From Patescibacteria group bacterium (GTDB lineage: Bacteria > Patescibacteriota > Patescibacteriia > SG8-24 > DYFX01), in assembly GCA_030583805.1 (NCBI GenBank), contig CP129476.1:966657-1030656 (forward strand): DNA of 64,000 nt, written 5' to 3'. Shown one piece after another: positions 10,220-54,992 of the stretch. The notes under the pieces were generated by a model. The model did not search any database. It worked only from the letters and a program-made list of their open reading frames with translations, and was not told the origin of the DNA. The stretch's first letter is position 1. The number at the start of each line of letters is the position of its first letter. A program made the position numbers and the translations under genes.

Positions 10220-10327
10220 ATATTCCTCCCGCGAGAAACCTAAACGAAAAAGACCCGCGTGTCAACCCGGCACACAATAAATTGCAGTGCCGGGTCAACG
10301 GGTCTTTTTTCTTCGGGATGCCGGCGC

Positions 10328-13422: not shown

Positions 13423-13539
13423 AGTTCCTTTCACGTCCCCCTCTCGGGGAACCGCCCATGGCGGGCGACACGCGACCATACGTAAAAACGAAGCGTCTGT
13501 CAAGCCCCGATTCCGACGCTGTCGACGCACGCGCGCAAC

Positions 13540-14133: not shown

Positions 14134-14143
14134 GCGAAACCAA

Positions 14144-14166
14144 AACCGCCCATCCGGGCGGTTTTG
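14144..14166 (+). terminator. rho-independent terminator
   Basis: CCGCCC-ATCC-GGGCGG followed by TTTTG. Confidence 0.55.
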
Positions 14167-14192
14167 CGTTCTTCCGACGCACGCGGTTAAAT
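14164..14192 (+). promoter_or_regulatory. putative promoter for tRNA-Ile (TTGCGT-17-TTAAAT)
   Basis: -35-like TTGCGT at 14164-14169, a 17-nt spacer, and -10-like TTAAAT at 14187-14192. The tRNA 5' end is 10 nt downstream. Confidence 0.3.
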
Positions 14193-14202
14193 GAGTGCGC
14201 GC

Positions 14203-14278
14203 GGGCCCGTAGCTCAATGGTTAGAGCACCGAGCTTATATCTCGGCGGTTGATGGTTCGAATCCATCCGGGCCTACCA
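14203..14278 (+). tRNA. tRNA-Ile, anticodon UAU (AUA-decoding)
   Basis: Manual cloverleaf: acceptor GGGCCCG / CGGGCCU (G1-U72), D-arm GCUC-AAUGGUUA-GAGC, anticodon stem CCGAG/CUCGG with loop C-U-UAU-A-U, T-arm GAUGG-UUCGAAU-CCAUC, discriminator A, CCA encoded. The acceptor/3' end GGCCUACCA resembles bacterial tRNA-Ile. Confidence 0.8.
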
Positions 14279-14287
14279 AAGTCCACC

Positions 14288-15100
14288 ATGGCTCTCCTAT
14301 CACAGGAAATATTGCAGACCGTTGTATCTATTGAGATACAGCGCGGTGATGAGACCACGACCATCGCCACTGGTTTTTTGTTCGTTAAAAAAATTGATGA
14401 TAATCAGATCTCCAAAAGAGGGCGAGTCTATTTGGTTACAGCGAAGCATGTGCTATTTAAAAACAATCAAATTAAATACAGAGAGATTCTTGTTCGGATG
14501 GATAAGAATGGATCAGGTGGCCAACTTTTCAGGGCGCCTCTACAGGATGAAAATGGAGCACTCTTTGCAATTCATCCAACAGCAGATGTTGCCGTGCTTT
14601 TATTAAGCGTGAAAGCGCTTCAAGATGGGGATCTCAAGTACAGGTGGTTCATTAATGATCGGGATACGGTATACAAAAAAACTTACGAAGAATTTGGAGT
14701 TTCTGTTGGTGATAGCGTCTTTGTTCTAGGTTTTCCAAGAGGTTTGCGAGGGGTGAGTGCTAATTACGCCATTTGTCGTCAAGGCATTATTGCAAGACTT
14801 GATCAAGAGTGTCTGAACGATGGTTATTTCTGGATAGATGCCCCTGTATTTCGAGGTAATAGCGGAGGTCCAGTAATTTTGCGTCCAGAAGGGTTTTCCA
14901 TAGAAGGTACCAAGGCAGTAGGTTCATCTTGCTTGCTTGGCCTAGTATCCATGTGGGTGAACGCGGATGATGAATCTGGTGAGACCGAAAATGATTTAAA
15001 AGGGCAGATGGGGTTAGGCAAAGTAGTCACTACCCAAGCCATTGAGCGTGCTATTGAAGAGCATGAAAAAATGTTAATCGCTCGAAAATCAAGCCAGTGA
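14288..15100 (+). CDS. trypsin-like (S1/Trypsin_2) serine protease, no signal peptide; low-GC (~43%) gene
   Basis: Catalytic triad context: TAKHVL (His), D in the middle block, GNSGGPV (Ser). GC is far below the ~64% of the flanks. Begins 10 nt after the tRNA-Ile 3' end. Confidence 0.75.
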   Translation: MALLSQEILQTVVSIEIQRGDETTTIATGFLFVKKIDDNQISKRGRVYLVTAKHVLFKNNQIKYREILVRMDKNGSGGQLFRAPLQDENGALFAIHPTADVAVLLLSVKALQDGDLKYRWFINDRDTVYKKTYEEFGVSVGDSVFVLGFPRGLRGVSANYAICRQGIIARLDQECLNDGYFWIDAPVFRGNSGGPVILRPEGFSIEGTKAVGSSCLLGLVSMWVNADDESGETENDLKGQMGLGKVVTTQAIERAIEEHEKMLIARKSSQ

Positions 15101-17557: not shown

Positions 17558-17670
17558 AATTGAAAGGCCGGTTGTTGATCTACCACGAAAACCCTTGACC
17601 AAAGAGGGTTTTTGTGTTTTACTGGGGCGTCCGTAACCGCAGTTCTTCCCGCCAATCCCAGAGGAGACCG

Positions 17671-18088: not shown

Positions 18089-19027
18089 TTGACGCGGCGG
18101 CGATTTTTTGATATGAAGCGGCCGTCGCACGCGCGACGGAAAGGGCTGGCCATGGCCAAGCCGACATCCGAACAGTTGGAACGTTTCCACGCGCTGATCG
18201 AAGCGGGCATGATCACGAGCAGCTCGCTCGAGATCCAGCTCAGGCACCATGAGCGCCGTTTGCTGAGACTACGCGCCGCCACACCGACGCTCGTCACGCC
18301 GCACGAGGCGACGGAGGAGCAACTCGCGCTTCGGCGCGCGCTCGATGCCACCGGCGCGAGCTACCCCGAACTGCTCGTTCCACCTCAGAAGGGGGATAAG
18401 CACGGAGCGCGCCTGCGCAATATTCTCTTGAACTTCTCGGTTCAGGCGGGTGAAACGCGCCTTTACCCTTCGACCATTCGCATGCTCGTGCATCTCAACG
18501 AGCGGCAGGTGGTGATGGGTCACGACATGGGCCCCGGCAGGTTGGAAATCCTGAAGGCGCGGCTCGCGCAGGCGGCACTCCGTTTCGGCATGTCCGAAGC
18601 GGAAATCAGCGAGGCCTTTGGTCCGAAGCTTGAGCTGCCGCTCGCCCAGAAGCAGTTCGCTGCCAGGCGCACGCTCGACCGCGTCGGCGCGGACTATCCA
18701 GGCATCCTGATCCGTCCAGAGACGCCCGTTGCCACGAGCGCGCTGTGTCTCCTCCAGACCATGTGCCGGAGCGGTCGGGTGCAGATACAAGGCGTGCCGG
18801 GGAACACCTTGCGATCAGCGACCACGATCCGGGAGCTCGTACGGCTTTCGCCGGGCGATTTTCCGAAGATCGACGGGTCGAGCGCCGAGATCGCGGAGTG
18901 CGTTCAAGAAGCCTTGGCAGCCGTCGGCCTGCGGCTGGGTATGAACCTTTCCGAAGTCGAAAGATCTTTCCGTCCGGAACCCTTGCCTGAAATCAAACTC
19001 GATACCATTGCCGCTGCGGCTTCCTAG
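18089..19027 (+). CDS. hypothetical protein with an internal two-fold repeat
   Basis: Two ~100-aa halves are visibly similar (RRALDATGASYPELLVPP... vs RRTLDRVGADYPGILIRPE...; LRNILLNFSVQAGETR vs LCLLQTMCRSGRVQ). Alternative starts are at 18113 and 18152. Confidence 0.45.
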   Translation: MTRRRFFDMKRPSHARRKGLAMAKPTSEQLERFHALIEAGMITSSSLEIQLRHHERRLLRLRAATPTLVTPHEATEEQLALRRALDATGASYPELLVPPQKGDKHGARLRNILLNFSVQAGETRLYPSTIRMLVHLNERQVVMGHDMGPGRLEILKARLAQAALRFGMSEAEISEAFGPKLELPLAQKQFAARRTLDRVGADYPGILIRPETPVATSALCLLQTMCRSGRVQIQGVPGNTLRSATTIRELVRLSPGDFPKIDGSSAEIAECVQEALAAVGLRLGMNLSEVERSFRPEPLPEIKLDTIAAAAS

Positions 19028-25097: not shown

Positions 25098-27185
25098 ATG
25101 ACTTACGTCTGCCCGATGCATCCTGAAGTGACGCGCGACGTTCCCGGCCGGTGTCCCGAATGCGGAATGGAACTCGTGCCGATGAAAGAAAAGAAAGGCC
25201 ACGGCGCGTATGCGGCGCCAGGCAAGCATGAAGGCCACTCGACCGCGATGTTCGCCCGGAAGTTTTGGATCAGTTTCGCGCTGACAATCCCGGTCGTCCT
25301 GTATTCCGAGATCGTGCCGATGCTCTTCGGCTGGCGGCCGCCGTCCTTTTCCGGTTCGGCCTACGTGCCGGCGATTCTCGCCTCGATCGTCTTCTTCTAC
25401 GGCGGCCTGGTCTTCCTTGCCGGCGGCTTCAGGGAATTGCGCGGCCGGAAGCCCGGCATGATGACGCTGATCTCGCTGGCCGTCGTTGCAGCCTATGCCT
25501 TCAGCGTCTGGTCGACGCTCATTGGCGCCAAAGAAACCCTTTATTGGGAGCTGACGACGCTTATCACGGTGATGCTGCTCGGTCATTGGCTTGAGATGCG
25601 GGCCGTGAGCAGCACGAGCGGCGCTTTGAAGGAGTTGGCGAAACTTTTGCCGGACACGGTCGAAGTGCTGCGCGACGGTACGTCGACGAAAATTCCGCTC
25701 TCGGAGCTTCGCGAAGGCGACCGTTTCATCGTACGGCCGGGCGGCAAGATTGCCGCCGACGGCGACATCGAGGATGGCGAGTCTGAAGTGAACGAGGCGG
25801 CGGTTACCGGCGAGTCCCGGCCCGTCAAAAAAGGAGGGGGTGACTCGGTCATCGCCGGTACGATCAACGGCGACGGATCGTTGACCGTGCGCGTCAAGAA
25901 CATCGGCGAGAAAACCTTTTTGGCCGGCGTCATGCGGCTGGTTGCCGACGCCCAAGCTTCGAAATCGAAACTGCAGATTCTCTCCGACCGCGCAGCCATG
26001 GTGCTCACGTACATCGCGGTCGGCGCGGGCGCCGTCACTCTGGCCGTTTGGTGGTTTGCCGCGTCTCCCGTCTTCGCCGTCGAACGCATGGTGGCGGTGC
26101 TCGTGATCGCTTGCCCGCACGCGCTCGGCTTGGCCGTGCCGCTCGTCGCTTCGATCTCCACGATGATGGCGGCGCGGAACGGTTTCTTGGTGAAGCAGCG
26201 TCTCGCGCTTGAAGCCGCTCGCAACATCGATATCGTCCTGTTCGACAAAACCGGCACGCTGACGAAAGGGGAGTACGGCGTCGATCGCGTCTGGGGCTTC
26301 GGCCTTTCGGAAGACGACGTGTTGGCGCTGGCTGCAGCGGTCGACGCTTCGTCGGAACACGTCGTCGCCAAGGCGACGGTCGCGCGTGCCAGAGAAAAGG
26401 GCCTCGTTATCCCGGCGGTGGAAGCTTTCCAGCGGGTGCCCGGCAAGGGCGTGAAAGCGCGCGTCGGAGGCCGCGAGATTTCCATCGGCGGAGAAAATGC
26501 GCTTGCCCCGGGCGCGCGACAAGTAGCGTCGAAGGTCTGGGACGAAATCGCGGAAGAAAATGCCAAGGGCAAGACGGTCGTCTACGTGCTGGAGAACGAC
26601 GCCGTGCTCGGAGCGATCGCGCTTTCCGACGTCCTCCGCGAGGAATCACGCGAAGCGATCGCGCTGCTCAAGAAGATGAACGTCAAAGTCGGCATGGTCA
26701 CCGGCGATTCCGACGATGTCGCGGCCTGGGTCGCGGGGGAGCTCGGCATCGACGAAGTGTTTGCCCGCGTCCTTCCGGGCGACAAGGCGGGCAAGGTCAA
26801 GGGGCTTCAAGCCAAGGGGCTCAAGGTCGCGATGGTCGGAGACGGCATCAACGATGCGCCCGCGCTCACGCAAGCCGACCTGGGTATCGCGATCGGCGCC
26901 GGCACGAACGTCGCCGTCGAGTCGGCAGGCATTATTTTGGTAAAGAACGATCCGCGCGACATTCCCAAGATCGTGCACCTGTCCCGCCTGACCTACGCCA
27001 AGATGATCCAAAATCTTTTTTGGGCGACGGGCTACAACATCGTGGCGATGCCGCTTGCGGCCGGCGTCCTGGCGAGCCGCGGCATTATGCTTCAGCCGGC
27101 TGTGGCTGCCGTTTTCATGTCGCTCAGCACGGTGATCGTGGCGGTGAACGCCCTACTCTTGCGCGGAAAGAAGCTTTCGGCATGA
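25098..27185 (+). CDS. copB: P1B-type heavy-metal ATPase, CPH type (CopB-like), with N-terminal CxxC...CxxC metal-binding domain
   Basis: N-terminal YVCPMHPEV...GRCPECGMEL (HMBD-like). TM motif ACPHALGLAVP (CPH). [15 protein letters not shown]. Confidence 0.85.
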   Translation: MTYVCPMHPEVTRDVPGRCPECGMELVPMKEKKGHGAYAAPGKHEGHSTAMFARKFWISFALTIPVVLYSEIVPMLFGWRPPSFSGSAYVPAILASIVFFYGGLVFLAGGFRELRGRKPGMMTLISLAVVAAYAFSVWSTLIGAKETLYWELTTLITVMLLGHWLEMRAVSSTSGALKELAKLLPDTVEVLRDGTSTKIPLSELREGDRFIVRPGGKIAADGDIEDGESEVNEAAVTGESRPVKKGGGDSVIAGTINGDGSLTVRVKNIGEKTFLAGVMRLVADAQASKSKLQILSDRAAMVLTYIAVGAGAVTLAVWWFAASPVFAVERMVAVLVIACPHALGLAVPLVASISTMMAARNGFLVKQRLALEAARNIDIVLFDKTGTLTKGEYGVDRVWGFGLSEDDVLALAAAVDASSEHVVAKATVARAREKGLVIPAVEAFQRVPGKGVKARVGGREISIGGENALAPGARQVASKVWDEIAEENAKGKTVVYVLENDAVLGAIALSDVLREESREAIALLKKMNVKVGMVTGDSDDVAAWVAGELGIDEVFARVLPGDKAGKVKGLQAKGLKVAMVGDGINDAPALTQADLGIAIGAGTNVAVESAGIILVKNDPRDIPKIVHLSRLTYAKMIQNLFWATGYNIVAMPLAAGVLASRGIMLQPAVAAVFMSLSTVIVAVNALLLRGKKLSA

Positions 27186-27662
27186 CGGTCGGGTATACTG
27201 GGGCGACATGACGCGCGGCACCTCAACCGAATTGATCCGCACGACGGCGAAGCTGGTCTTCGGATCTTTTCTTTTCCTGTTCATCGCTTCGTTCTTGGTC
27301 GTGCCGTGCATGCAAGGAGCCGGCGGACTGTTCGTTTCGGCGGCGACCGCGCCTTTGCAGGGCATGCGCTCGTCGTCGGCGGCGATGACACTGCCGCGTA
27401 CCGTCGTCCGCGGCGCGTTGCCGATGACGACGTTCGGAGGCTCGCTCTTGGCAACGCCGGCATCGAGCGCCGTGCTGCCCGCCGCTTCCATCCAATACGC
27501 GAGCGCCTGGCAGGCGTCGCCGCCCCCGCTCTCGATCCCTGTGCAGAAACAGGCAGTAAAGACCGTCAGCCGCTCGCCTTTGGCTGCCGCGGCTTCTTGC
27601 ATGGAGTCTAAAATTTTCAAACCACAGATGAACGTCTTCAAGGCGTTCGAGGCGTCGGCCAC
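27153..27662 (-). CDS. hypothetical Cys-containing protein (coding strand uncertain; see findings)
   Basis: The minus-strand ORF has a protein-like composition (…TACFCTGIESGGGDACQALAYW…MPCKGAVAA…). The overlapping plus ORF 27208-27843 is S/A/P/R-rich and low-complexity, but it is preceded by a TATACT box 8 nt upstream of its ATG. Confidence 0.3.
   Translation of the reverse strand: MADASNALKTFICGLKILDSMQEAAAAKGERLTVFTACFCTGIESGGGDACQALAYWMEAAGSTALDAGVAKSEPPNVVIGNAPRTTVRGSVIAADDERMPCKGAVAAETNSPPAPCMHGTTKNEAMNRKRKDPKTSFAVVRINSVEVPRVMSPQYTRPSCRKLLSAQE
27194..27199 (+). promoter_or_regulatory. TATACT -10-like box, 8 nt upstream of the ATG at 27208
   Basis: GGGTATACTGGGGCGACATG. Confidence 0.25.
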
Positions 27663-29352: not shown

Positions 29353-29483
29353 CTTCCCTCCAGATAGGTTTACGTACGGTTGCGACAGGGAAGTCGAACC
29401 GTAGTTGAAAACCATGGCCCTGTCAAGGCGCATCGTGCGCGCATCCTTGAAGGCATGCCCCGCTTCCTTTAGGATGGCTGCAT

Positions 29484-32162
29484 ATGCCGAAGGCCGCGAA
29501 AAAGCCGGAATTGGAAAAAGCCTACGACGCTTCCAAGGTGGAGGACGCGATCTATCGCCGCTGGGAAGCGAGCGGCTTTTTCAATCCCGACAAGCTGCCG
29601 GGCAAGCGCAAGGACGCCTTCACGATCATGATGCCGCCGCCGAACCGCACGGGCATCTTGCACGTCGGTCACGCCACCGGCATCGCGATCCAGGATCTCC
29701 TGATCCGCTTCAACCGCATGCGCGGCAAGAAGACGCTCTGGCTTCCGGGCACCGACCACGCCGCCATCGCGACGCAGGTGAAAGTCGAAAGCCTGCTTCG
29801 CGAAAAGGGGATGAAGGATCCTAAGCGCGAACTCGGCCGCGAGAAGTTTTTGGCCGAGGTCGTGAAGTTCGCCGAAGCGTCCGGCGCCACGATCGTGAAG
29901 CAAACGCGCTCCATGGGCGCCTCGTGCGATTGGTCGCGCGAAGCCTACACCTTCGACAAGGAGCGCAACGCGGCCGTGAACGAGATGTTCCGGATGATGT
30001 ATGAAGACGGCCTGATCGAGCGCGGGTATCGCGTGGTCAACTGGGATCCGCAGTTCCAGACGACGCTCTCCGACGACGAAGTGCTGACGAAAGAAACGAA
30101 AGCCAAGTTTTTGACGTTCACGTACGACAAGGATTTTCCGATCACGATTTCCACCACCCGCCCCGAAACGAAATTCGGTGACACGGCCGTCGCCGTCCAT
30201 CCCGACGACGCGCGCTACAAGAAGTACGTCGGCCAGACGTTCACGCCGACCTTCTGCGGCAAAAAATTGCATATCAAGGTGATCGCCGACAAAGCGGTTG
30301 ATCCGTCCTTCGGTACGGGCGCCCTTGGCGTCACGCCGGCGCATTCGATGATCGACGCCGAAATGGCCGAGCGCCACGCGCTCCCCACGGTGCAAGTGAT
30401 CGGACCGGACGGCCGCATGAACGAAACGGCGGGCGCCGCCTTCAAGGGTCTGACGCTTGTCGAAGCACGCGCCAAGATCGAGAAGATGCTGGCCGACGCC
30501 GGCCTCCTTAAAGGAGTCGAAGAGATCGCGCAGAATCTTCCCGTCGCCGAACGCGGCGGCGCGCCCGTCGAGCAATTGCCGATGAAGCAGTGGTTCATTC
30601 GCGTGAACAAGCCGTTCACCTTGAAGCAGGCCACGCTCGGCAAATGGAAAAAGGGGGAGAAGGTCACGTTGAAACAGTTGATGCGCGAAGCCGTCGGGCC
30701 GAAACGCACGGAGATCCTTCCCGACCAATTCACCAAAGTCTATTTCCACTGGATCGATAACCTTCGCGACTGGTGCATCTCGCGCCAGATTTGGTTCGGC
30801 CACAGGATTCCCGTTTGGTACAAGGGTGAAGAAATGCGCGTCGCCGACCGCGCCCCCGGCAAAGGCTGGGAGCAGGATCCTGACACGCTCGACACCTGGT
30901 TCTCGTCCGGCACCTGGACGTTCTCGACGCTCGGCTGGCCGAAAAAAACGAAAGACCTGGAACGCTTTCATCCGACCGACGTCCTCGAAACCGGCCGCGA
31001 CATTATTTTCTTCTGGGTCGCGCGCATGGTGATGATGTCGACGTACGCCCTCGGAGCATCGCCGTTCAAGACGGTCTATCTCCACGGCCTCGTGCGCGAC
31101 GAGCAGGGAAGGAAGATGTCGAAGTCGCTCGGCAACATCATCGACCCGCTCGACGTCTCCGCGAAATACGGCACCGACGCCGTGCGCTTGTCGCTCGTGA
31201 TTGGCACTGCGCCCGGCGCCGACACGAAACTTTCGGAAGAGAAGATCGCCTCATACCGCAACTTCACCAACAAGCTTTGGAACATCTCGCGCTTCGTGCT
31301 GACGAGCGTTTCAAAGGTACAACGCGTGCCGAAAAAACCGACGGCCAAGACGCTTTCCGACAAATGGATTCTGGCGCGGCTCGAGTCCGTGGCGGCGCAG
31401 GCATCGGCCTCGATCGAGAAATGCGAATTTTCTCCGGCCGGCGAAGTGCTGCGCGAATTCACCTGGACGGAATTCGCCGACTGGTATTTGGAGATCGCCA
31501 AAATCCAGATGCACGATGCCAAGCTGAAGGCTTCCACGGAAAAAGTCCTCTTGTACGTTCTCGAGAACGTCCTCAAGCTGTGGCATCCGTACATGCCGTT
31601 CGTGACGGAAGCGGTTTGGGATCTTCTGGCTGGCAATGCCAAGGGCAAGAAATTCCTGATGATCGAGTCGTGGCCGAAAGCGAAGACTGCAGCCGCGCCG
31701 AAAGAGTTCACCTTGCTCCAGGAAATCATCGGCGCGATCCGCAACATCCGCAGCGAGTACAAGGTTGAACCCGCAAAGAAGATCAACGCGACGATCGTCG
31801 CGGGTGCGAGAGCGAAACTCGTGAAGGAGAACGCCGCCGTCATCGCCACGCTCGCGCGCATCGACACGCTCACGATCCTGCCGAAAGGGGAGAAGCCGAA
31901 GGACGCCGCCTCCGCCATGGCCGGGGGCGTCGAGGTCCACCTGCCGCTCGCGGGCATGGTCGACATGGCGAAAGAGAAGACGCGCCTCGAAAAGGAAAAG
32001 CAAAACCTCGAAGGCTTCGTAAAGAGCCTCGAAGCGAAACTCTCCAATCCGGGCTACACCGACAACGCGCCGAAAGAGGTTGTCGAGAAAACGCGCCAGA
32101 TGCTCGCCGAGAAAAAAGAGGAACTTGTAAAGGTACAAGTTGCATTGAATGCTATGAAATAG
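29484..32162 (+). CDS. valS: valine--tRNA ligase
   Basis: HIGH-type PNRTGILHVGHA, KMSKS (RKMSKSLGN), anticodon-binding and C-terminal coiled-coil domains. 892 aa. Confidence 0.95.
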   Translation: MPKAAKKPELEKAYDASKVEDAIYRRWEASGFFNPDKLPGKRKDAFTIMMPPPNRTGILHVGHATGIAIQDLLIRFNRMRGKKTLWLPGTDHAAIATQVKVESLLREKGMKDPKRELGREKFLAEVVKFAEASGATIVKQTRSMGASCDWSREAYTFDKERNAAVNEMFRMMYEDGLIERGYRVVNWDPQFQTTLSDDEVLTKETKAKFLTFTYDKDFPITISTTRPETKFGDTAVAVHPDDARYKKYVGQTFTPTFCGKKLHIKVIADKAVDPSFGTGALGVTPAHSMIDAEMAERHALPTVQVIGPDGRMNETAGAAFKGLTLVEARAKIEKMLADAGLLKGVEEIAQNLPVAERGGAPVEQLPMKQWFIRVNKPFTLKQATLGKWKKGEKVTLKQLMREAVGPKRTEILPDQFTKVYFHWIDNLRDWCISRQIWFGHRIPVWYKGEEMRVADRAPGKGWEQDPDTLDTWFSSGTWTFSTLGWPKKTKDLERFHPTDVLETGRDIIFFWVARMVMMSTYALGASPFKTVYLHGLVRDEQGRKMSKSLGNIIDPLDVSAKYGTDAVRLSLVIGTAPGADTKLSEEKIASYRNFTNKLWNISRFVLTSVSKVQRVPKKPTAKTLSDKWILARLESVAAQASASIEKCEFSPAGEVLREFTWTEFADWYLEIAKIQMHDAKLKASTEKVLLYVLENVLKLWHPYMPFVTEAVWDLLAGNAKGKKFLMIESWPKAKTAAAPKEFTLLQEIIGAIRNIRSEYKVEPAKKINATIVAGARAKLVKENAAVIATLARIDTLTILPKGEKPKDAASAMAGGVEVHLPLAGMVDMAKEKTRLEKEKQNLEGFVKSLEAKLSNPGYTDNAPKEVVEKTRQMLAEKKEELVKVQVALNAMK

Positions 32163-32294
32163 GCCCCGGCTTTCGCCGGGGCGGCTTCGCAGGAAGAGTT
32201 CAGGTCGTTTGATTGCCCTGCTCGCCGATTGACGCGACGCTCGCAGGACTGTAAGACGGTCTTGCGAGTTTTCGCATCCGCCAAGGAGGCCGTC

Positions 32295-32744
32295 ATGGAA
32301 CGCGTTTCTCTCGCTCTCGTGATTGTCGCGCTTGTTACGTTTGTCGCGACCGTGCTCGGAAGGCGCTTCATCCGGCGGAGCCGCGCAAAGCACGCTGGAC
32401 TGATGCGCGCGAAGCTCTCGGCTCTGCGTTCGGCGGTGCGGCATTGGCCCGGCCCCGTCGAAGATCTGGTGAGGATCGACAGCGATCGCCAGCGCGGAAG
32501 CCATTCGTTCCGCACGATCGAATTACGGCCGTGCCCGGAAGAGCTTTGGCGCGTGCTGATCCTCGTGCAGGAACAGTATCGGCTGGAGATCATCAGCGCC
32601 AAGGATCACACGCGATGCTATCCCGCGGTCGGGACGTGGTCGGACGAACCGTGGCTCAAGAAAGAAATCGATCTCCTGCTCTGGGAGCTCGACGCTCTGT
32701 CTGCGCGGCAGGATCGATCGCCTGGCGTGACACACGACCATTGA
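32295..32744 (+). CDS. small N-terminally membrane-anchored hypothetical protein (array member 1)
   Basis: SD AAGGAGG 5 nt upstream of ATG 32295. TM LALVIVALVTFVATVLG. Confidence 0.5.
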   Translation: MERVSLALVIVALVTFVATVLGRRFIRRSRAKHAGLMRAKLSALRSAVRHWPGPVEDLVRIDSDRQRGSHSFRTIELRPCPEELWRVLILVQEQYRLEIISAKDHTRCYPAVGTWSDEPWLKKEIDLLLWELDALSARQDRSPGVTHDH

Positions 32745-32778
32745 GCATGTCGCAGCTGCTTGAGGCATCGCGACGGCA

Positions 32779-32802
32779 CCGCTTGACCTCAAGCGGTTTT
32801 TT
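32779..32802 (+). terminator. rho-independent terminator carrying a TTGAC loop motif (array spacer 1)
   Basis: CCGCTT-GACCTC-AAGCGG + TTTTTT. Confidence 0.55.
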
Positions 32803-32842
32803 CTTTATGTTTGCGGCAGCTCACCACACGAAAGGAGCTTTC

Positions 32843-33358
32843 ATGCCGCCTGGAGCACTGTTCTTTCTCGGTCTCGTCGCCCTCATCGTCATCGCGATCT
32901 TCGTGCGCTGGATCGTGGTGCGCTACGCCGAGTGGCGCCTGCGGAAGCCGCTGTCGGCGAAGCTCGACTGGCTGATTGCGCAGGTGAAGTACCACGAGGC
33001 CACGCCGCTGCAGGATCTTCGCGTCATTCACATCGGCGCGAGCCCTGGCGTCGACGACCCGAACGACACCTCGACGCACTACGAGATCTGCCCGTTGTAC
33101 GGCCACTACTTCAGCGTCGCGCACATCGGCGCTGGGAAGAAGCTGCGGTATCGCGTCAATCGATGGCGCGACGACATGTACGGCCCCATCTTCCCGCCTC
33201 TGGGCGGGACGTGCCGCAGTCCGTGGTTCGTCGAACGGATGGAGACGCTCTGCAAGCTGCTCGACGCCTATCCGCGCGGGAAGCTGCTCGCGAGGATCTC
33301 CGACCGTACCCACGGCACCGATCCAGATCCCGGACCCGACTTGCTCCCGGCCGCTTGA
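32843..33358 (+). CDS. small N-terminally membrane-anchored hypothetical protein (array member 2; paralogue of member 3)
   Basis: SD AAAGGAG. TM FFLGLVALIVIAIFV. C-terminal block WFVERMETLCKLLDAYPRGKL resembles WFVAKAEMLVQALDAYQRHPL in member 3. Ends ...AA* like member 3. Confidence 0.5.
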   Translation: MPPGALFFLGLVALIVIAIFVRWIVVRYAEWRLRKPLSAKLDWLIAQVKYHEATPLQDLRVIHIGASPGVDDPNDTSTHYEICPLYGHYFSVAHIGAGKKLRYRVNRWRDDMYGPIFPPLGGTCRSPWFVERMETLCKLLDAYPRGKLLARISDRTHGTDPDPGPDLLPAA

Positions 33359-33375
33359 CGCGCGCCGGTTTTTTT
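33347..33375 (+). terminator. rho-independent terminator (array spacer 2), 30-nt sequence repeated at 33977-34004
   Basis: CCGGCCGC-TTGAC-GCGCGCCGG (8-bp stem, 1-nt bulge) + TTTTTTT. Confidence 0.6.
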
Positions 33376-33410
33376 GTTAGCGTCCGCGTGTCATTTCAGG
33401 AGGTAATGGG

Positions 33411-33986
33411 ATGGAATTTCTCATCGCTTTGTTCGCCACGCCCGTGATCGTCGGACTTTGCGTGCTCCTTGCTTGGCTGATGCGGGCTATTCCACACAGG
33501 CGATACGAGCGTTCGATCAAGGGTCTCGTGTCGAACTACATGGATACGATCGCGCGGCTCACGGTGCTCGGACCGCCGTCGTTTTACGAGATCACGTCGT
33601 TGGCTTGCGATCGCGGCAGCGCGTACAAACAATGGGCTTGCCGCATTTTTCTCAAATCCTCTCTGGGATTTGCTCTCGAGAAGTGCGGGTTCGAAGGACG
33701 CTGGACGTATCGTGCGCATTTCTTCGACCCGCTCACGGGCCAATATCGCAAGTTCGGCAACAATGAGGTGTGGGGGGTCCGTAGCGAGTGGTTCGTGGCC
33801 AAGGCCGAGATGCTCGTGCAAGCCCTCGACGCCTATCAGCGCCACCCGCTCGTGAAGACGCGCGAAGGTAGCGCTTTCAACTCGGAAGCCGAACGCTTCC
33901 AGGCACTCTTCCGTATGACGGATCGCACCAGGACCGACTTCAACAGCTTCTTCCAGAACCTCACACAGTCACGATCGGCCGCTTGA
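33411..33986 (+). CDS. small N-terminally membrane-anchored hypothetical protein (array member 3)
   Basis: SD AGGAGG. TM LIALFATPVIVGLCVLLAWL. Paralogous to member 2. Confidence 0.5.
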   Translation: MEFLIALFATPVIVGLCVLLAWLMRAIPHRRYERSIKGLVSNYMDTIARLTVLGPPSFYEITSLACDRGSAYKQWACRIFLKSSLGFALEKCGFEGRWTYRAHFFDPLTGQYRKFGNNEVWGVRSEWFVAKAEMLVQALDAYQRHPLVKTREGSAFNSEAERFQALFRMTDRTRTDFNSFFQNLTQSRSAA

Positions 33987-34004
33987 CGCGCGCCGGTTTT
34001 TTTG
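33977..34004 (+). terminator. rho-independent terminator (array spacer 3), repeat of 33347-33375
   Basis: The identical GGCCGCTTGACGCGCGCCGGTTTTTTTGTT string appears twice. Confidence 0.6.
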
Positions 34005-34034
34005 TTCACGTGGAGAGGAAGGAGGCGCAGATCC

Positions 34035-34553
34035 ATGCCGTTCCTTATCCGCTGGCTCGCCATTCTCGTCATCACGCTCGCCTTCGTCGTGCTTCTCATC
34101 GCGCTCGCCGCGTTTTGGAAGGAGCGTTCGGAAAAGAAGCGCGCGGCGCTCGTCCGGGCCGACGAGCAAAGAAATCGACTGGCCTACGACCGCCTCCTCG
34201 CCGAAATGATGGCCTACGCGTCGGAGCCGGGCACCGTCTTCCACGAGGAGGCCTTCGCCGACTTCATGTGCATGCGCACGGTGGCGGATCGTTTCGGCAA
34301 GCGCTGTTACGTCGAGCGGCAGCGCAAGTTTGATCAGGCGCTCCACCGGACGCTGTGCCTCTTTGAAAACGGCGACTGGATTCCTTCAAAGTCCGTCGTT
34401 GTCGACATTCCCGCCACGCAGGTCGACTGGGCCGCCTACCACCGGAACGTCCGCGACATCCGCGAGCACGGCGCCAAGTTCTCGTTCCTCGACGAGAGCG
34501 GTCTGCATCGCCAGGTGCGCGTCCGTTGCGAACCGGCCGAACCCCGCGTCTGA
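34035..34553 (+). CDS. small N-terminally membrane-anchored hypothetical protein (array member 4)
   Basis: SD AAGGAGG. TM LAILVITLAFVVLLIALAAF. Confidence 0.5.
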   Translation: MPFLIRWLAILVITLAFVVLLIALAAFWKERSEKKRAALVRADEQRNRLAYDRLLAEMMAYASEPGTVFHEEAFADFMCMRTVADRFGKRCYVERQRKFDQALHRTLCLFENGDWIPSKSVVVDIPATQVDWAAYHRNVRDIREHGAKFSFLDESGLHRQVRVRCEPAEPRV

Positions 34554-34562
34554 TCCTCCTCG

Positions 34563-34593
34563 CTTCGCGACGGAGGATTTTTCATTGACGCGC
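34563..34593 (+). terminator. rho-independent terminator (array spacer 4) followed by a TTGACGCGC motif
   Basis: ATCCTCC-N12-GGAGGAT + TTTTT, then CATTGACGCGC. Confidence 0.5.
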
Positions 34594-34636
34594 TCCTTCT
34601 TCTGTGAGAGGTTGGACGCAACCGAGAGGAGGCCGC

Positions 34637-35020
34637 ATGCGTATCCTGTACTGGATTCTCGGTGTCGCCGCGTCCGCCGCCGCGGCCGCCTACGTGGCGA
34701 AACACCGCGGAAAGAAGTCCGTCATCGACCAGTTCATTGCCGCTCTGGAGACGAAGAACGTCACGGTGTTCTCGGAGTGCGACGGCATTCCCATGCGCAA
34801 CGTCCGCGAACAGTGGTTCGCCGGCGTGGCTGACGGCGTCCCGTTTCATTTCAACGCCCGCACCGACAGGCACTCCACGAGATGGGTCTTCGTCCTCACG
34901 TGGAAAGGCGAACCGTACGTCGAGCGCTGGAACGTCCTGAAGCGTGGCCGCGCTCGAACCCTCGCCGCCGTCCACCTCGCTCTGAAGCGCCTGCCCGTCC
35001 GTCGGGAAGGCAACGACTGA
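34637..35020 (+). CDS. small N-terminally membrane-anchored hypothetical protein (array member 5)
   Basis: SD GAGGAGG. TM ILYWILGVAASAAAAAYV. Confidence 0.5.
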   Translation: MRILYWILGVAASAAAAAYVAKHRGKKSVIDQFIAALETKNVTVFSECDGIPMRNVREQWFAGVADGVPFHFNARTDRHSTRWVFVLTWKGEPYVERWNVLKRGRARTLAAVHLALKRLPVRREGND

Positions 35021-35043
35021 CAACCTTTCGGGGTTGTTTTTTT
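35021..35043 (+). terminator. weak hairpin + 7-T run (possible terminator/attenuator abutting tyrS start)
   Basis: CAACC-TTTCGG-GGTTG + TTTTTTT. The ATG of tyrS follows immediately. Confidence 0.35.
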
Positions 35044-36255
35044 ATGCTTGAAAAGCTAAAGTCTCTCCATATGAAAGCCCCGTCTGACGCCGCCATCCAA
35101 CAGCTCCTGGAGCACCAGGTCGCCGACGTGATCGTCCGCGAGAGCCTTGAGAAGAAGCTCCGCTCCGGCAAAAAGTTGCGCATCAAGTTCGGCGCCGATC
35201 CTTCCCGTCCGGATTTGCATCTCGGCCACGCCGTCGTGCTCAGGAAGCTCCGCGCCTTCCAGGATCTCGGCCACACGGTCATCTTTTTGATCGGCGACTT
35301 CACCGCGCTGATCGGCGACCCGACGGGCAAGTCGAAAACGCGCCCGATGCTCTCCGCCAAGGAGATCAAAGAGAACGCGAAGACGTACCTGAAGCAGGTC
35401 GGCAAGGTCTTGAACGTGAAGAAGGGCGAGATCCGCTACAACTCGGAATGGCTCGGCAAGATGAAGGCCGCCGATTTCGTGTCGCTCTGCGCCCAGTTCA
35501 CCGTCGCCCGCATCATCGAGCGCGACGATTTCTCGAAGCGCCTCGCCGCCAAGACGGACGTGCACATGCACGAGCTGCTCTACCCGATGCTCCAGGCCTA
35601 CGACTCGATCGCGCTCGACGCCGACATCGAGCTCGGCGCCACCGACCAGACCTTCAACCTCCTCGCCGGCCGCGCGCTCATGAGCAAAAAGGAGATGGTT
35701 CCTCAAGACATCATGACGACCCCGATTTTGGTCGGCACCGACGGCAAGGAAAAGATGTCGAAGTCGCTGAACAATTACATTGGACTCGCCGACTCGGCCG
35801 AAGACATGTTCGGCAAGACGATGACGGTGCCGGATTCCGCGCTCCCGAACTGGCTCGAACTCGCCGCCGATTATTCGAAGGAAGAAATCGCCGCCGAGAA
35901 CGCCGCCCTCAAGAGGGGAGAGAACCCGCGCGACGTGAAGATGCGCCTCGCCAAGAGGATCGTCTCGGCCTATCACGGCGCGAAAGCGGCCGACAAAGCC
36001 GAAGAAGGCTTCAAGGCGCGTTTCCAAAAAGGCGAGATGCCGACGGAGATGAAAAGCTGGAAACTGCCGAAGACGATGAAGCTGTACGAAGTCGTCGCGA
36101 CGGCGTTCGGGATGTCGAACTCGCAAGCGCGCCGCGATATCGAAAGCGGCGGCGTGAAGATCAACGGCGCGGCCGTGAAGAATCCGATGCAGGAAATCGC
36201 CAAAGGCGGCGTCGTCCTCCAAAAGGGCAAATTGCATTTCGTGAAGATCGTCTGA
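35044..36255 (+). CDS. tyrS: tyrosine--tRNA ligase (short form with C-terminal S4-like domain)
   Basis: FGADPSRPDLHLGH (HIGH), KMSKS (EKMSKSLNN), C-terminal S4-like VKINGAAVKNP. Alternative start at 35071. Confidence 0.9.
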   Translation: MLEKLKSLHMKAPSDAAIQQLLEHQVADVIVRESLEKKLRSGKKLRIKFGADPSRPDLHLGHAVVLRKLRAFQDLGHTVIFLIGDFTALIGDPTGKSKTRPMLSAKEIKENAKTYLKQVGKVLNVKKGEIRYNSEWLGKMKAADFVSLCAQFTVARIIERDDFSKRLAAKTDVHMHELLYPMLQAYDSIALDADIELGATDQTFNLLAGRALMSKKEMVPQDIMTTPILVGTDGKEKMSKSLNNYIGLADSAEDMFGKTMTVPDSALPNWLELAADYSKEEIAAENAALKRGENPRDVKMRLAKRIVSAYHGAKAADKAEEGFKARFQKGEMPTEMKSWKLPKTMKLYEVVATAFGMSNSQARRDIESGGVKINGAAVKNPMQEIAKGGVVLQKGKLHFVKIV

Positions 36256-47958: not shown

Positions 47959-48306
47959 TTACCGCACGACGAAGAAGAATTGCAGGATGCAGCAGACGAA
48001 GCTCAGGGCTCCCGCCAGGACCAAGGCGATGATCCTCGGGTCCATGGGCTCGTCGTCCTTCGTGTCGTCTTGCTCCAACCACCACCGACCCGCGAGCAGG
48101 ATGGCTGCGATCGCATAGACGAACAAGAGGATGCCGACCGTCACGCGGACGGCCGTGACGCTCGTTTCGAGATTCAACCAGCCGGCTCCGAGCGCGGCGA
48201 TGAAGCCGACCCGGTGCATGAAGTGCCCGACCTGCCTGTACTTCACCATGACGATGAGCCAAGCGGCGGCGATGAGGAAAAGGTAGGCGGAAACGATGGC
48301 GGACAT
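47959..48306 (-). CDS. multi-TM membrane protein, hypothetical
   Basis: Start MSAIVSAY is preceded by GGAGG. The divergent promoter region is shared with groES. Confidence 0.45.
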   Translation of the reverse strand: MSAIVSAYLFLIAAAWLIVMVKYRQVGHFMHRVGFIAALGAGWLNLETSVTAVRVTVGILLFVYAIAAILLAGRWWLEQDDTKDDEPMDPRIIALVLAGALSFVCCILQFFFVVR

Positions 48307-53140: not shown

Positions 53141-54056
53141 GACTGCGCTGGTCACCGGCGGCGCGGGCTTCATCGGCTCGCACCTCGTCGATCGCCTGAT
53201 CGCCGAGGGGTTCAAGGTCGCCGTCGTCGACGATCTGACGAACGGTCGTCGCGAATACCTGAATCCGCAAGCGCATTTCTATAAGATCAGCATCACCGAT
53301 CCGAAACTCGGCGTCGTTTTTGCGGCGGAAAAGCCGAATGTCGTCTTCCATCTCGCTGCGCACATCGACGCGCGCGTTTCGGTACAGGACCCGATCCACG
53401 ACGCCGAAGTGAACGTCCACGGATCGCTCCGCGTCTTGAAGCAGTGCTTGAAGCACGGCGTAAAGAAACTTGTCTTCTCGTCGTCCGGCGGTGCAATCTA
53501 TCACGACACGAAAAAATTCCCGACGCCGGAAACCGAAGCGCCTTCTCCGCTCACGCCGTACGGCGTTTCCAAGCTTGCCTTCGAGTATTACTTGGAAACC
53601 GCGCGGCATCATTATGGGTTGGAATACGTCGCGCTCCGCTACGCCAACGTCTATGGTCCGCGCCAAGACCAAAAAGGGGAGGGCGGCGTGATCGGCGTCT
53701 TCTGCAAGATGCTGAAAGACGGGAAGCCGCCGAAGATTTTCGGCGACGGCAAGCAGACGCGCGATTTCGTTTACGTCGGCGACGTCGTGAACGCCAACAT
53801 GAAAGCGATGCGCGCCAAGGAGTCTGGCGCTTTCCATATCGCAACGGGCAAGGAAACAACCGTAAAAACGGTCGCTTCGCTGATCGCCAAGGCCTTCGGT
53901 TGGAAAGGCATCTTCGGCCGCGGCGCGACGCCGGTCGGCGACGTGCGCCGCAGCTGCCTGAGCCCGCGCCTCGCTAAGAAAAAACTCGGCTGGCAGGCCA
54001 AGGTGATGATTCACGACGGCGTCGAGCGCACGGTCGCTTGGTTTAGATCACGTTAA
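53112..54056 (+). CDS. NAD-dependent epimerase/dehydratase (UDP-glucose 4-epimerase-like SDR)
   Basis: TGGAGFIGSHLV Rossmann motif, catalytic YGVSK (YxxxK), and a C-terminal substrate domain. Overlaps the prfB 3' end by 29 nt. Confidence 0.85.
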   Translation: MPKKTTTKNKTALVTGGAGFIGSHLVDRLIAEGFKVAVVDDLTNGRREYLNPQAHFYKISITDPKLGVVFAAEKPNVVFHLAAHIDARVSVQDPIHDAEVNVHGSLRVLKQCLKHGVKKLVFSSSGGAIYHDTKKFPTPETEAPSPLTPYGVSKLAFEYYLETARHHYGLEYVALRYANVYGPRQDQKGEGGVIGVFCKMLKDGKPPKIFGDGKQTRDFVYVGDVVNANMKAMRAKESGAFHIATGKETTVKTVASLIAKAFGWKGIFGRGATPVGDVRRSCLSPRLAKKKLGWQAKVMIHDGVERTVAWFRSR

Positions 54057-54058
54057 GT

Positions 54059-54991: not shown

Positions 54992-54992
54992 C

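Follow-up and report, generated by a model that had tools for sequence, protein, structure and literature searches.

The gap between valS and tyrS in the genome of this tiny, uncultured member of the Patescibacteria is occupied by an array of five same-strand genes (g1-g5, Table 1), the products of which are small bitopic membrane proteins consisting of a transmembrane helix, a helical stalk and a compact α/β head. Sequence comparison divides the array into three families, with g1, g2 and g3 (and gene X of the relatives) grouped by their profiles as ancient paralogues of one superfamily, and g4 and g5 representing two further orphan families. As predicted from consensus and conservation of the promoters and terminators, each gene forms its own Shine-Dalgarno-led transcription unit. 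The units appear to be joined by a nested junction of about 50 nt, in which the hairpin of the upstream terminator wraps the -35 hexamer of the next gene, and the terminator's T-run spans the 17 nt between this hexamer and a TAnnnT -10. We have high confidence in the anatomy and evolution of the array as described below, and in the architecture of its junctions. Positions refer to the whole stretch of DNA analysed (the window, 64,000 nt).

Table 1. Genes and putative transcription signals of the valS-tyrS array
Feature	Positions	Strand	Description
Putative g1 promoter	32229..32257	+	TTGACG, 17-nt spacer, TAAGAC; TTGAC 66 nt before ATG; read from the sequence
g1 (QY323_05310)	32295..32744	+	149 aa; N-terminal transmembrane helix and α/β domain; g1/X/g2/g3 superfamily
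g1-g2 nested junction	32778..32811	+	Hairpin 32778-32797 encloses TTGACC (32783-32788); T-run is the 17-nt spacer; -10 TATGTT (32806-32811)
g2 (QY323_05315)	32843..33358	+	171 aa
g2-g3 junction	33347..33383	+	Hairpin CCGGCCGC-TTGAC-GCGCGCCGG; T7 run; extended -10 TGT-TAGCGT (33378-33383); first 30-mer copy
g3 (QY323_05320)	33411..33986	+	191 aa; paralogue of g2
g3-g4 junction	33973..34011	+	Hairpin same as in g2-g3 junction; second 30-mer copy; T7 run; weak -10-like TCACGT (34006-34011)
g4 (QY323_05325)	34035..34553	+	172 aa; separate family
g4-g5 junction, second type	34552..34613	+	Terminator hairpin 34552-34579 and T-run, then TTGACG (34585-34590), 17-nt spacer, TGA-GAGGTT (34608-34613)
g5 (QY323_05330)	34637..35020	+	127 aa; separate family
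g5 terminator	35019..35070	+	Hairpin 35019-35038 and T-run; overlaps probable leaderless tyrS promoter

Anatomy of the array and database searches

The five genes correspond to GenBank entries WKZ28914.1-WKZ28918.1, with coordinates exactly matching the ORF starts of the original prediction, and all five are labelled "hypothetical". The predicted plan of an N-terminal hydrophobic helix followed by a basic stretch was borne out by these calls and by hydropathy. The N-terminal Kyte-Doolittle 19-residue maximum was 2.7-3.2 for g1-g4 and only 1.8 for g5, the N-terminal segment of which is Ala-rich and weakly hydrophobic yet well conserved, and a basic cluster follows the hydrophobic segment in all five products. 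A scan of the whole 64 kb for ORFs of 70-260 aa that combine a Shine-Dalgarno site with a strongly hydrophobic N-terminus gave only five, four of them within the array, with g5 falling just under the hydrophobicity cut-off. The g1 of this genome is truncated: its orthologues continue into a C-terminal extension and end in an acidic FPSLDDPMDDMD tail, both missing here. As the original prediction had stated, strong Shine-Dalgarno sites set the array apart from its neighbours: GGAGG, AGGAG or AAGGAGG was located 6-12 nt 5' of the ATG in g1-g5, and no such site was seen at valS, tyrS and one further neighbour among the sites inspected. Judged from these start regions, the array genes appear to be Shine-Dalgarno-led and the housekeeping neighbours leaderless.

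An HMMER search of 1.84e9 representative proteins returned only 49 relatives, all of 118-225 aa, each corresponding to a single gene segment and none of them annotated. No family of Pfam, NCBIfam, PHROG or PADLOC matched the array proteins, the best match in PADLOC and PHROGs (E = 0.007) being in the transmembrane region, and neither homologues of known function nor fold matches nor informative neighbours were found for the array genes. The matches of the g4 profile to DARPins were rejected as ankyrin repeats, since they were sums over fused repeats with no single stretch passing alone. The matched region of g4 is one helix and a β hairpin in the AF2 model, and the 16 members had no Pfam Ank match. 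The top PDB sequence match was HIV-1 Vpu, non-significant at E = 0.13-0.14 over residues 1-55.

Family relationships and predicted structures

Profile-profile comparison with hhalign gave probabilities of 97.1% for g2 and g3, 92.7% for g1 and g2, 92.6% for X and g2, and 90.4% for X and g1, and the g1-g2 and g2-g3 matches spanned the whole soluble domain. The proposed paralogy of g2 and g3 is consistent with these values and with the WFV..(E)ML..LDAY block common to both (57% identity over 21 aa). No sequence relation of g4 or g5 to g2 or to each other was detected by hhalign (g4-g2 4.5%, g5-g2 4.0%, g4-g5 0.2%), which led us to reject a single paralogous family of all five genes. The pairwise and profile alignment that had been suggested for the five products thus upheld the idea of one diversifying family for g1, g2 and g3 (and X), but not for g4 and g5.

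Structure prediction of the soluble domains, also suggested originally, gave confident AF2 models of g2 and g4 despite shallow alignments. The g2 model (pLDDT 85.6) consisted of helix 3-49, which forms the transmembrane segment and the stalk, four β strands at 58-107, and a C-terminal helix at 127-141, which is conserved and carries CRSPWFVERMxxLxxLLDxYP. The g4 model (pLDDT 92.5) consisted of helix 2-62, five strands, helix 132-145 and two more strands, with DRFGKRxYVExQR as the conserved motif of the family. Foldseek found no PDB fold match for either model at E <= 0.001, and the fold search of BFVD likewise returned nothing at E <= 0.001; the head fold of the models is apparently new. Since the stalk and C-terminal helices of the g2 family are conserved and the β-sheet is variable, the family suggests a constant docking surface combined with a changing recognition surface.

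Terminator-promoter junctions

Each of the five genes is followed by a hairpin with a T-run, as originally described; the hairpins fold with energies between -8.7 and -17 kcal/mol, and the GC-rich hairpin and T-run 3' of the stop codon that mark an intrinsic terminator were present in all five cases. TTGAC is located 52-66 nt 5' of each array gene in this genome, an equivalent copy lies 48-56 nt 5' of g1 in the relatives, and the motif was invariant in more than 30 junctions of nine genomes, 45-66 nt from the start codons. Most of the junctions compared had a TAnnnT-type hexamer (mostly TAGCGT) 17 nt 3' of TTGAC; those before g4 had only a weak -10-like hexamer, and the g5-type junctions had TG-n-GAnnnT. 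A TTGACA-like -35 and a TATAAT-like -10 hexamer, 16-18 nt apart and kept in orthologues, are characteristic of sigma-70-type promoters, and this conservation strongly supports the original suggestion that TTGAC could double as the -35 element of the next gene. A strict promoter consensus scan was passed by one site only. Between orthologous junctions the stems flanking TTGAC covary and the T-run is kept.

The upstream stop codon often lies within the -35 of the downstream gene, as the TGA of g2 does within TTGACG at 33355-33360 and the stop codon of g3 within TTGACG at 33983-33988. The AA* ending shared by the two proteins, previously cited as a sign of their paralogy, is not a protein feature but the read-out of the 5' arm of the terminator and of the TGA inside TTGAC. 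The g4-g5 junction, with the terminator first and the promoter after it, kept this layout in nine of the nine genomes compared. Downstream of g5, the probable leaderless promoter of tyrS consists of TTGTTT, 16 nt, TAAAGT and 8 nt to the ATG at 35071.

The 30-nt repeat GGCCGCTTGACGCGCGCCGGTTTTTTTGTT exists in two exact copies, as claimed, at 33349 and 33977 rather than at 33345 and 33975, against a chance expectation of about 1e-9. The motif originally described for the four internal spacers was confirmed, CGCTTGAC or TTGACGCGC being present in all of them, with TTGACGCG also 5' of g1. Over the whole window TTGACGCG was not enriched (11 found vs 7.9 expected), and four of its eight plus-strand copies were within array spacers; the composite TTGAC...TTTTT was found at eight distinct sites (nine overlapping matches) vs 1.3 expected. 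The nested junction also occurs elsewhere in the window, so it is not specific to the array and is therefore uninformative on the function of the array genes. No published description of the nested terminator/-35 design was found in the literature.

Position and content in relatives

In every relative found (13 loci), the valS-tyrS gap was filled by the array, with four to eight genes, confirming the copy-number variation that had been anticipated. The order valS-array-tyrS was seen at L001, L003, L006, L007, L082, L086 and L087, the array lay 5' of tyrS on the partial contigs L002, L004, L084 and L085, and even the most distant family members were syntenic. With orthologues at the same position in at least 12 independent assemblies, the absence from relatives that had been named as a possible sign of an assembly artefact was not observed. 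The gene order g1-X-g2-g3-g4-g5 is fixed across the clade, and g5, always directly 5' of tyrS, is the only universal member. The content varied among relatives: g4 is missing in L087 and L088, g1 and X are missing in L007, g5 is duplicated in L086, and extra families Y, Z, U and V are found in some relatives. A secreted protein with a SpaA_2 domain lies within the array of L006 and L087.

The GC content of the array (0.60-0.63) equals that of the flanks, and no integrase or transposase was found among the neighbouring genes here or in the relatives. Together with the same slot in all relatives, these features led us to reject a mobile or recent island, and the notion that the array was "dropped" between two synthetase genes does not hold. 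The array is best explained as clade-specific, vertically inherited and of fast turnover, confined to a narrow Patescibacteria lineage (Paceibacteria/"Minisyncoccota"-type); taken as a whole, with the topology and function proposed below, this explanation has an even chance.

Divergence, gene loss and cassette replacement

Compared with the closest relative L082, dN/dS was 0.24 for g1, 0.42 for g2, 0.17 for g4 and 0.21 for g5, against 0.013-0.13 for the flanking genes. The array proteins diverge much faster than the flanks, in line with the proposed rapid diversification, and the gene-wide ratios of the array genes, all below 1, indicate purifying selection on its members. The elevated array rates could represent relaxed constraint, like that of h211, an orphan gene nearby outside the array with a dN/dS of 0.29.

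The g3 protein was only 33-35% identical to that of the closest relative vs 94% for the flanks, with a saturated dS of 2.4 vs about 0.4 for the flanks, and the divergent block (33404-33971) coincided with the g3 coding sequence. The identities of g3 were also incongruent: it was 34% identical to its counterpart in L082 and 44% identical to that in L001, the reverse of g2, g4 and g5. By these comparisons the g3 coding sequence is probably a swapped or ancient allele and behaves as a hypervariable cassette. The g1-g2 junction of this genome is chimeric, combining the junction between g1 and X with that between X and g2 as they stand in L082, and gene X was in all probability lost here when two spacer modules recombined. 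The repeated junctions thus appear from the sequences to have served as recombination substrates: X was deleted between them, two hairpins were homogenised to the identical 30-mer, and the replaced g3 cassette was bounded by them. Between genomes about 94% identical in their flanks, one can see genes lost, domains duplicated and whole coding sequences replaced.

Membrane topology and alternative explanations

Nearly all of the roughly 51 members of the five families had 0-1 K/R before the helix and 4-7 K/R in the 15 residues after it, although a few members of the g4 family had only 1-3 after the helix. The N-terminal flank before the helix was 0-6 residues, and inspection of these sequences revealed no signal-peptide-type n-region in any family. 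Because basic residues follow the helix, which by the positive-inside rule stay inside, and an n-region is missing, the globular heads are probably cytoplasmic (N-out/C-in). One helix, continuous in the AF2 models, a negligible N-tail and the positive excess on the C-terminal side are the features of N-out/C-in bitopic (type III) proteins. The original prediction had favoured surface or secreted proteins, possibly with a role in host interaction or immunity. Spelled out, this reading would make them secreted proteins or N-in/C-out signal anchors of an episymbiont, resembling antigens and diversifying through contact with the host or with phage at the cell surface. We regard this as unlikely, although fast divergence, copy-number variation, the cassette-like replacement of g3, and the variable β-sheet on conserved helices of the g2 family would all fit it. 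The SpaA_2 protein inside the array of two relatives could also point to an extracytoplasmic role. That protein, however, carries a classical MKK...ASA signal in both relatives (MKKSLIIAMLAVVSLSAVPSASA in L006), whereas the K/R pattern of the array families is opposite to that of a signal anchor or signal peptide, and a Sec-secreted or signal-anchored surface protein was rejected on these grounds. The helix-plus-β-sheet "lollipop" also resembles extracytoplasmic pilins and pseudopilins, but the best pseudopilin matches in the Foldseek search of the PDB (XcpV/XcpW) were not significant (E = 0.6-0.7, TM-score 0.21-0.26). Type IV pilins and pseudopilins were rejected, since none of the roughly 51 members had a class III (G/FTLIE) motif, the N-termini being MERVSL, MPPGAL, MEFLIA, MPFLIR and MRILYW. 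No conserved cysteine pairs were found in the array sequences compared, though the genome encodes DsbA-like proteins.

About equally unlikely is that the products are subunits of one lineage-specific housekeeping membrane complex, such as a divisome or envelope scaffold, diverging by drift in small bottlenecked symbiont populations. The clade-wide fixed order and location, the purifying selection on all members, promoters and Shine-Dalgarno sites of similar design, from which comparable expression would be expected, and the similar rate of h211 outside the array are in its favour. The composition of the array is, however, inconstant, the genes for subunits of a single complex usually share a transcript while here a terminator follows every gene, and drift alone is insufficient for the g3 dS far above the flanks and its phylogenetic incongruence. 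That the ORFs are non-functional, as decaying pseudogenes or as frames open by chance in a GC-rich spacer, or that the array is a misassembly or was recently inserted by a mobile element, is effectively refuted. The missing annotation, the lack of homologues of known function and the truncated g1 would agree with it, but dN/dS well under 1, orthologues at the same position, confident AF2 models, conserved Shine-Dalgarno sites, promoters and terminators, and GC and neighbourhood without signs of mobility argue against it.

Proposed function and comparison with known systems

Tentatively, the array products may be adaptor or "guard" proteins, abundant, independently expressed, tethered to the membrane and facing the cytoplasm. 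Rather than as surface antigens, they would serve in an envelope process specific to the lineage and caught up in an evolutionary conflict, with phage or with toxins or effectors entering the cell. If the cytoplasmic-face topology is true, surface antigen variation cannot explain the diversification, which would point to intracellular conflict in organisms about whose interactions with phage and host little is known. The valS-tyrS array is a tractable locus (see also PMC9132574, 2022). Three orphan families are collected in one locus, and both modelled ones (g2 and g4) are confident and unlike any solved structure. Because of its fixed chromosomal address, the array can be found in any relative through its two flanking aminoacyl-tRNA synthetase genes. 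The nested junction and the contrast between Shine-Dalgarno-led and leaderless genes are concrete testable statements for a phylum in which transcription has hardly been studied by experiment.

Like the array proteins, type IV pilins and T2SS pseudopilins are small, often tandem and variable, with a long N-terminal helix, the first half of which is a membrane anchor and the second half of which packs on a 4-5-stranded antiparallel sheet. Unlike them, the array proteins have no prepilin leader or G-1/F+1/E+5, their charge predicts the opposite orientation, and genes for pilus assembly are not found next to the array. Among N-out/C-in (type III) bitopic membrane proteins, E. coli ZipA and YhcB and HIV-1 Vpu share several features with the array products: the N-terminal transmembrane helix is uncleaved and has hardly any N-tail, basic residues lie next to the membrane, and a helical linker carries the cytoplasmic domain. 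They have no sequence or fold homology to the array proteins, their heads are unrelated, and they are single genes rather than arrays of diverging paralogues.

With integron arrays and the orphan immunity-gene islands of polymorphic toxin systems, the array shares tandem same-strand genes, a fixed site and variable content, and whole-CDS replacement with break-points in inter-gene repeats is a further feature common to cassette loci. The array differs from these in having no integrase, attC-type site, toxin or mobile-element gene and no PADLOC model; its repeats are ordinary terminator-promoter junctions, its heads are membrane-anchored, and exchange appears to occur by homologous recombination. 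It is a long shot that the array is a cassette-exchange locus of a kind not described before, in which promoter-SD-CDS-terminator units for membrane-tethered recognition proteins facing the cytoplasm would be shuffled, deleted and replaced at the junctions, providing an ultra-small symbiont with a diversifiable intracellular repertoire of new-fold "guards" against phage or effectors with no dedicated recombinase, and in which the junction would couple termination to reinitiation. Intrinsic terminators beside promoters, and recycling and reinitiation by RNA polymerase after termination, are described by Kang et al. 2020 (PMC6978380) and Harden et al. 2020 (PMC6978322). As in those systems, RNA would be released in the array a few nt from the next promoter, and by this analogy the junction geometry should favour reinitiation by DNA-retained polymerase. 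Unlike in those systems, the array junction has its -35 inside the hairpin and uses the T-run as promoter spacer, often with the stop codon within the -35.

The locus between valS and tyrS is a conserved and clade-specific array with a fast turnover. Its genes are punctuated independently and encode predicted bitopic membrane proteins, which belong to three orphan families.

Gene array and its terminator-promoter junctions

The five gene calls (g1 to g5) were identical to GenBank WKZ28914.1-WKZ28918.1, every one annotated as 'hypothetical protein', in a complete genome of 1.17 Mb (locus tags QY323_) labelled 'Patescibacteria group bacterium'. The signals described in the original prediction were recovered. 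In each protein a basic cluster came after a hydrophobic N-terminal helix, and each gene was preceded by a Shine-Dalgarno site of the GGAGG type, a signal absent from valS, tyrS and other neighbours. A hairpin with a T-run (-8.7 to -17 kcal/mol) followed all five stop codons, TTGAC was found in every spacer, 52-66 nt upstream of each start codon, and the identical 30-mer was present as exact copies at 33349 and 33977. The 64-kb window had no more than five ORFs of 70-260 aa with both a Shine-Dalgarno site and a strongly hydrophobic N-terminus, and four of them were in the array, with g5 narrowly below the hydrophobicity cut-off. The sole ORF of this kind outside the array was not picked up by the HMM or tblastn screens with the array families.

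Positions of the features discussed, with amino acid identity and dN/dS of the array genes relative to L082, the closest relative (NG86 ratios, approximate because dS was 0.3-0.9), and HMMER matches per segment; positions are those of the window unless a related locus is named
Feature	Position	Length (aa)	Identity (%)	dN/dS	Matches	Remark
valS	29484-32162					upstream flank
g1	32295-32744	149	70	0.24	6	same strand as g2-g5
g2	32843-33358	171	74	0.42	13
g3	33411-33986	191	33-35		3
g4	34035-34553	172	77	0.17	15
g5	34637-35020	127	87	0.21	12
Unalignable block against L082	33404-33971					g3 coding sequence
Region at the end of g1	32693-32768					before acidic tail
g4 motif	34258-34310					residues 76-94
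g5 motif	34844-34894					residues 70-86
Nested design	9774-9789 (-)
Nested design	10247-10265 (-)
Nested design	13484-13503 (-)
Nested design	17595-17613 (+)
Nested design	18089-18109 (+)
TATACT, 8 nt before ATG 27208	27185-27210
valS upstream element	29420-29486
tyrS upstream element	35030-35073
Small ORF outside the array	47959-48306 (-)	115
tRNA-Ile, anticodon UAU	14203-14278
Lowest-GC kilobase	14001-15000					GC 0.465
Second low-GC kilobase	54001-55000					GC 0.507
g1 of L082	L082 6673-7494	273				second domain copy
SpaA_2 protein	L006 5346-6491	~381
SpaA_2 protein	L087 4766-5914	~381
SpaA_2 protein homologue	L088 3837-4970	377

Comparison of more than 30 junctions (the intergenic stretches of about 50 nt) from nine genomes revealed two layouts. 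Type A consisted of a 5' stem arm, TTGACN, a 3' stem arm, T6-7, 2-3 nt, TAnnnT (most often TAGCGT, usually with TG before it), 20-30 nt, the Shine-Dalgarno site and ATG. Type B, always located upstream of g5, consisted of a hairpin, a T-run, TTGACG, 17 nt and TG-n-GAnnnT. TTGAC was invariant throughout, the stems varied by compensatory substitutions, and the -35 to -10 spacing was 17 nt in almost all junctions, which together argue for a sigma-70-type promoter nested with the upstream terminator. The predicted -35 would lie in the apical part of that terminator, with the T-run as promoter spacer; the proposal that TTGAC serves as the -35 element of the next gene is thus well supported by its conservation. 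In many junctions the TGA of TTGAC was also the upstream stop codon. The shared AA ending of g2 and g3 does exist, but not as a protein feature, since the Ala-Ala or Pro-Ala ends of g2, g3 and several orthologues are the 5' stem arm translated up to this TGA.

The TTGAC...T5 composite occurred at 8 distinct sites of the window (9 overlapping matches) against 1.3 expected, a count reached by 0/100 shuffles. Five other window sites carried the composite outside the array junctions, and the nested design (a TTGAC -35 in or next to a hairpin, with a T-run spacer) at such sites indicates genome-wide packing of transcription units rather than a property of the array. As an array-specific octamer, TTGACGCG was rejected (11 found window-wide against 7.9 expected); the meaningful unit is TTGAC in its junction context. 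From consensus and conservation, each array gene would be transcribed independently, all promoter and terminator assignments being computational. The consensus-like -35, the TG-extended -10, the strong Shine-Dalgarno site and the leaderless look of the neighbours point to high expression of the array genes. Two studies showed post-termination reinitiation by DNA-retained polymerase in vitro in E. coli (PMC6978380, PMC6978322). It is a speculation, by analogy, that a terminator inside the next promoter might favour such reinitiation at this locus.

The housekeeping neighbours look leaderless, unlike the Shine-Dalgarno-led array genes. Upstream of valS, TTGAAG-N17-TAGGAT-N8-ATG was kept in 5-6 of the 7 loci compared, and upstream of tyrS, TTGTTT-N16-TAAAGT-N8-ATG was kept in 8 of 11; TATACT also preceded the ATG at 27208. 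The putative tyrS promoter was built into the g5 terminator. The annotated or longest tyrS start, ATG 35044, directly followed the g5 T-run; an in-frame TAA was present there in L001, and L003 and L002 had no ATG. ATG 35071 (ATGAAAGCCCCG) and its upstream TAAAGT were conserved in relatives, and the start at 35044 probably lies 27 nt upstream of the real one.

Family relationships

Pairwise BLAST of the array proteins found little similarity outside the WFV...LDAY block of g2 and g3. Profiles were built from the collected relatives and compared by hhalign, with shallow alignments of 3-16 sequences. These linked g2 to g3 (97.1%, E 6e-11), g1 to g2 (92.7%, E 4e-7, over 126 columns of the soluble domain), and X, an extra array gene of relatives, to g2 (92.6%) and g1 (90.4%). 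The values for g4 and g5 against g2 were 4.5% and 4.0%, and 0.2% for g4 against g5. The original prediction of a single family thus applied to g1, g2 and g3, and not to g4 and g5; the array comprises one superfamily, represented by three copies here and by as many as five domain copies in the relatives, and two further families.

All of them shared one gross plan, in which a transmembrane helix and a stalk helix are followed by a beta meander and a further helix. A loose hairpin-like motif, RT-x(1-3)-D-x(2-3)-[GS]-x(2-3)-[YW]-V, occurred in g4 and g5, and their C-terminal G-x-x-F-x-F...D..G segments were cross-aligned by MAFFT. The motif and the common helix-sheet-helix plan could reflect a very distant relationship among all the array families, one that hhalign did not support. 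Orthologues of g1 carried a charged C-terminal extension with a conserved acidic tail, FPSLDDP(M/L)DDM(D/E), resembling a short partner-binding peptide (alignment A7). The g1 of the window ended before this tail, and that of L082 had a second domain copy in place of the extension.

By our searches, these families are clade-restricted orphans. No significant match was found among Pfam, NCBIfam, PHROGs and PADLOC models or PDB sequence profiles. An exhaustive HMMER search of 1.84 billion representative proteins with the five concatenated soluble domains (E <= 1e-3) matched 49 proteins of 118-225 aa, each to one of the five segments. At 90% identity, none of the array proteins of the window clustered with any other of 15 billion sequences. 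A word-indexed search with g3 matched only g3 itself, and an exact-sequence look-up of g3 among contigs had no match. A metagenome scan with the g4 alignment yielded nothing beyond the contig already known as L006, which came from a Hainich groundwater well; the g5 alignment contained no conserved stretch suited to such a scan. The g4 profile matched DARPins, but an ankyrin identity was ruled out by the g4 model and by the lack of a Pfam Ank match. No description of the array families or of the nested junction was found in the literature.

Conservation and turnover of the array

A tyrS-based scan with one genome per species, together with contig look-ups, gave 13 related loci. The array families were located between valS and tyrS-argS in every complete locus, including the most divergent members, and left no trace in genomes with a tyrS of 51% identity or less. 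Since the slot is the same and g5, the sole universal member, always adjoins tyrS, the array is old and vertically inherited. Its GC equalled that of the flanks and no mobility genes were present, so the notion that it had been dropped between the synthetase genes does not hold. The lowest-GC kilobase of the window contained a tRNA-Ile with anticodon UAU. This anticodon is uncommon in bacteria, where AUA is usually decoded by a lysidine-modified CAU tRNA.

Although the location was fixed, the content varied. Family HMMs assigned g1-g2-g3-g4-g5 to the window, g1-X-g2-g3-g4-g5 to L082, g1-X-g2-g3-g4-g5-U to L001, g1-X-g2-g4-g5 to L003, V-g2-g4-g5 to L007, g1-X-?-g4-g5'-g5 to L086 and g1-?-SpaA_2 protein-g2-g2'-X'-g5 to L087/L088. 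The flanking proteins were 89-99% identical to those of L082 (dN/dS 0.013-0.13); g1, g2, g4 and g5 are real genes under purifying selection, with weaker constraint. The gene turnover among relatives and the low identity of g1-g4 compared with the flanks bear out the proposed diversification.

The g3 gene differed most, with a dS of 2.4 against about 0.4 in the flanks. Its identity to the g3 of L001, a more distant relative, was 44% and exceeded that to the g3 of L082; for g2, g4 and g5 the order was the reverse. The DNA that could not be aligned with L082 coincided with the g3 coding sequence, and both adjacent spacers were alignable. Either a divergent allele has replaced g3 or such an allele has long persisted here, and its break-points lie in the junctions. 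In the g1-to-g2 spacer, the hairpin was 34/34 identical to the g1-to-X junction of L082, and the sequence from the T-run on aligned with its X-to-g2 junction; this spacer is a chimera of the two and shows how the window lost gene X. The ancestral g2-to-g3 hairpin, CCGGCTGC...GCAGCCGG, was retained in L082 and L084. In the window it was overwritten by the g3-to-g4 hairpin (32/32 identical to that of L082), which explains the identical 30-mer; the cause was gene conversion, unless the overwriting merely accompanied the g3 swap. The junctions of the array have mediated deletion, conversion and the replacement of a cassette.

On a larger scale, valS was 94% identical to that of L082 but 64-68% to those of L001, L007, L003 and L006, and dsbA, tyrS, argS, the bactofilin gene and dagK were 87-95% identical to those of L001 and L007. 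Given this difference, valS and the array form a divergent island, which suggests that recombination or xenologous replacement took place here long ago, its break-points being near 28.7-29.4 kb and at the g5/tyrS boundary.

Predicted structures, topology and possible role

AlphaFold2 models of g2 and g4, built with the small family alignments, were confident. The g2 model (pLDDT 85.6, pTM 0.77) contained a helix (3-49), four strands (58-107) and a helix (127-141), and the g4 model (pLDDT 92.5) a helix (2-62), five strands, a helix (132-145) and two strands. In the g2 family, the stalk helix and C-terminal helix were conserved (mean entropy 1.7 and 1.1 bits), and the beta sheet, where indels occurred, was variable (2.2 bits).

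In all five families the segment before the helix had 0-6 residues with 0-1 K/R, and the 15 residues past it contained 4-7 K/R in nearly every member. The basic flank of a membrane helix lies on the cytoplasmic side according to the positive-inside rule, so the N-terminus would be outside and the globular domain cytoplasmic. The absence of a conserved cysteine pair agrees with this orientation, more weakly, as does the classical basic cleavable signal of the secreted SpaA_2 protein found in the same slot of relatives. That protein, absent from the window, contained a pair of SpaA_2 (prealbumin-like) domains in L006 and L087, the two relatives scanned, and scored 46 bits where Pfam requires 25; the L088 homologue had a precomputed faint SpaA_2 match.

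Our guess is that the array acts in evolutionary conflict at the inner membrane face, against phages as they enter or replicate or against effectors that reach the cell, as gene turnover, the allele-swapped g3 slot and the conserved-helix/variable-sheet pattern fit such a role. This guess is tempered by the gene-wide dN/dS of the array genes, which was below 1. The SpaA_2 protein may indicate an envelope or surface connection of the locus. The three features fit a surface antigen less well, and we consider the surface-protein reading unlikely. They are also a poorer fit to a fixed housekeeping complex, which seems equally improbable.

Foldseek searches with the full-length models (g2 and g4 against PDB, g4 against BFVD) gave no match at E <= 0.001, the best E-values being 0.6, 0.1 and 0.045 with TM-scores of at most 0.33. 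The 'lollipop' outline of the models was similar to that of pilins and pseudopilins, but this identity was ruled out, as the array proteins had no prepilin motif, the fold scores were insignificant and the charges were reversed.
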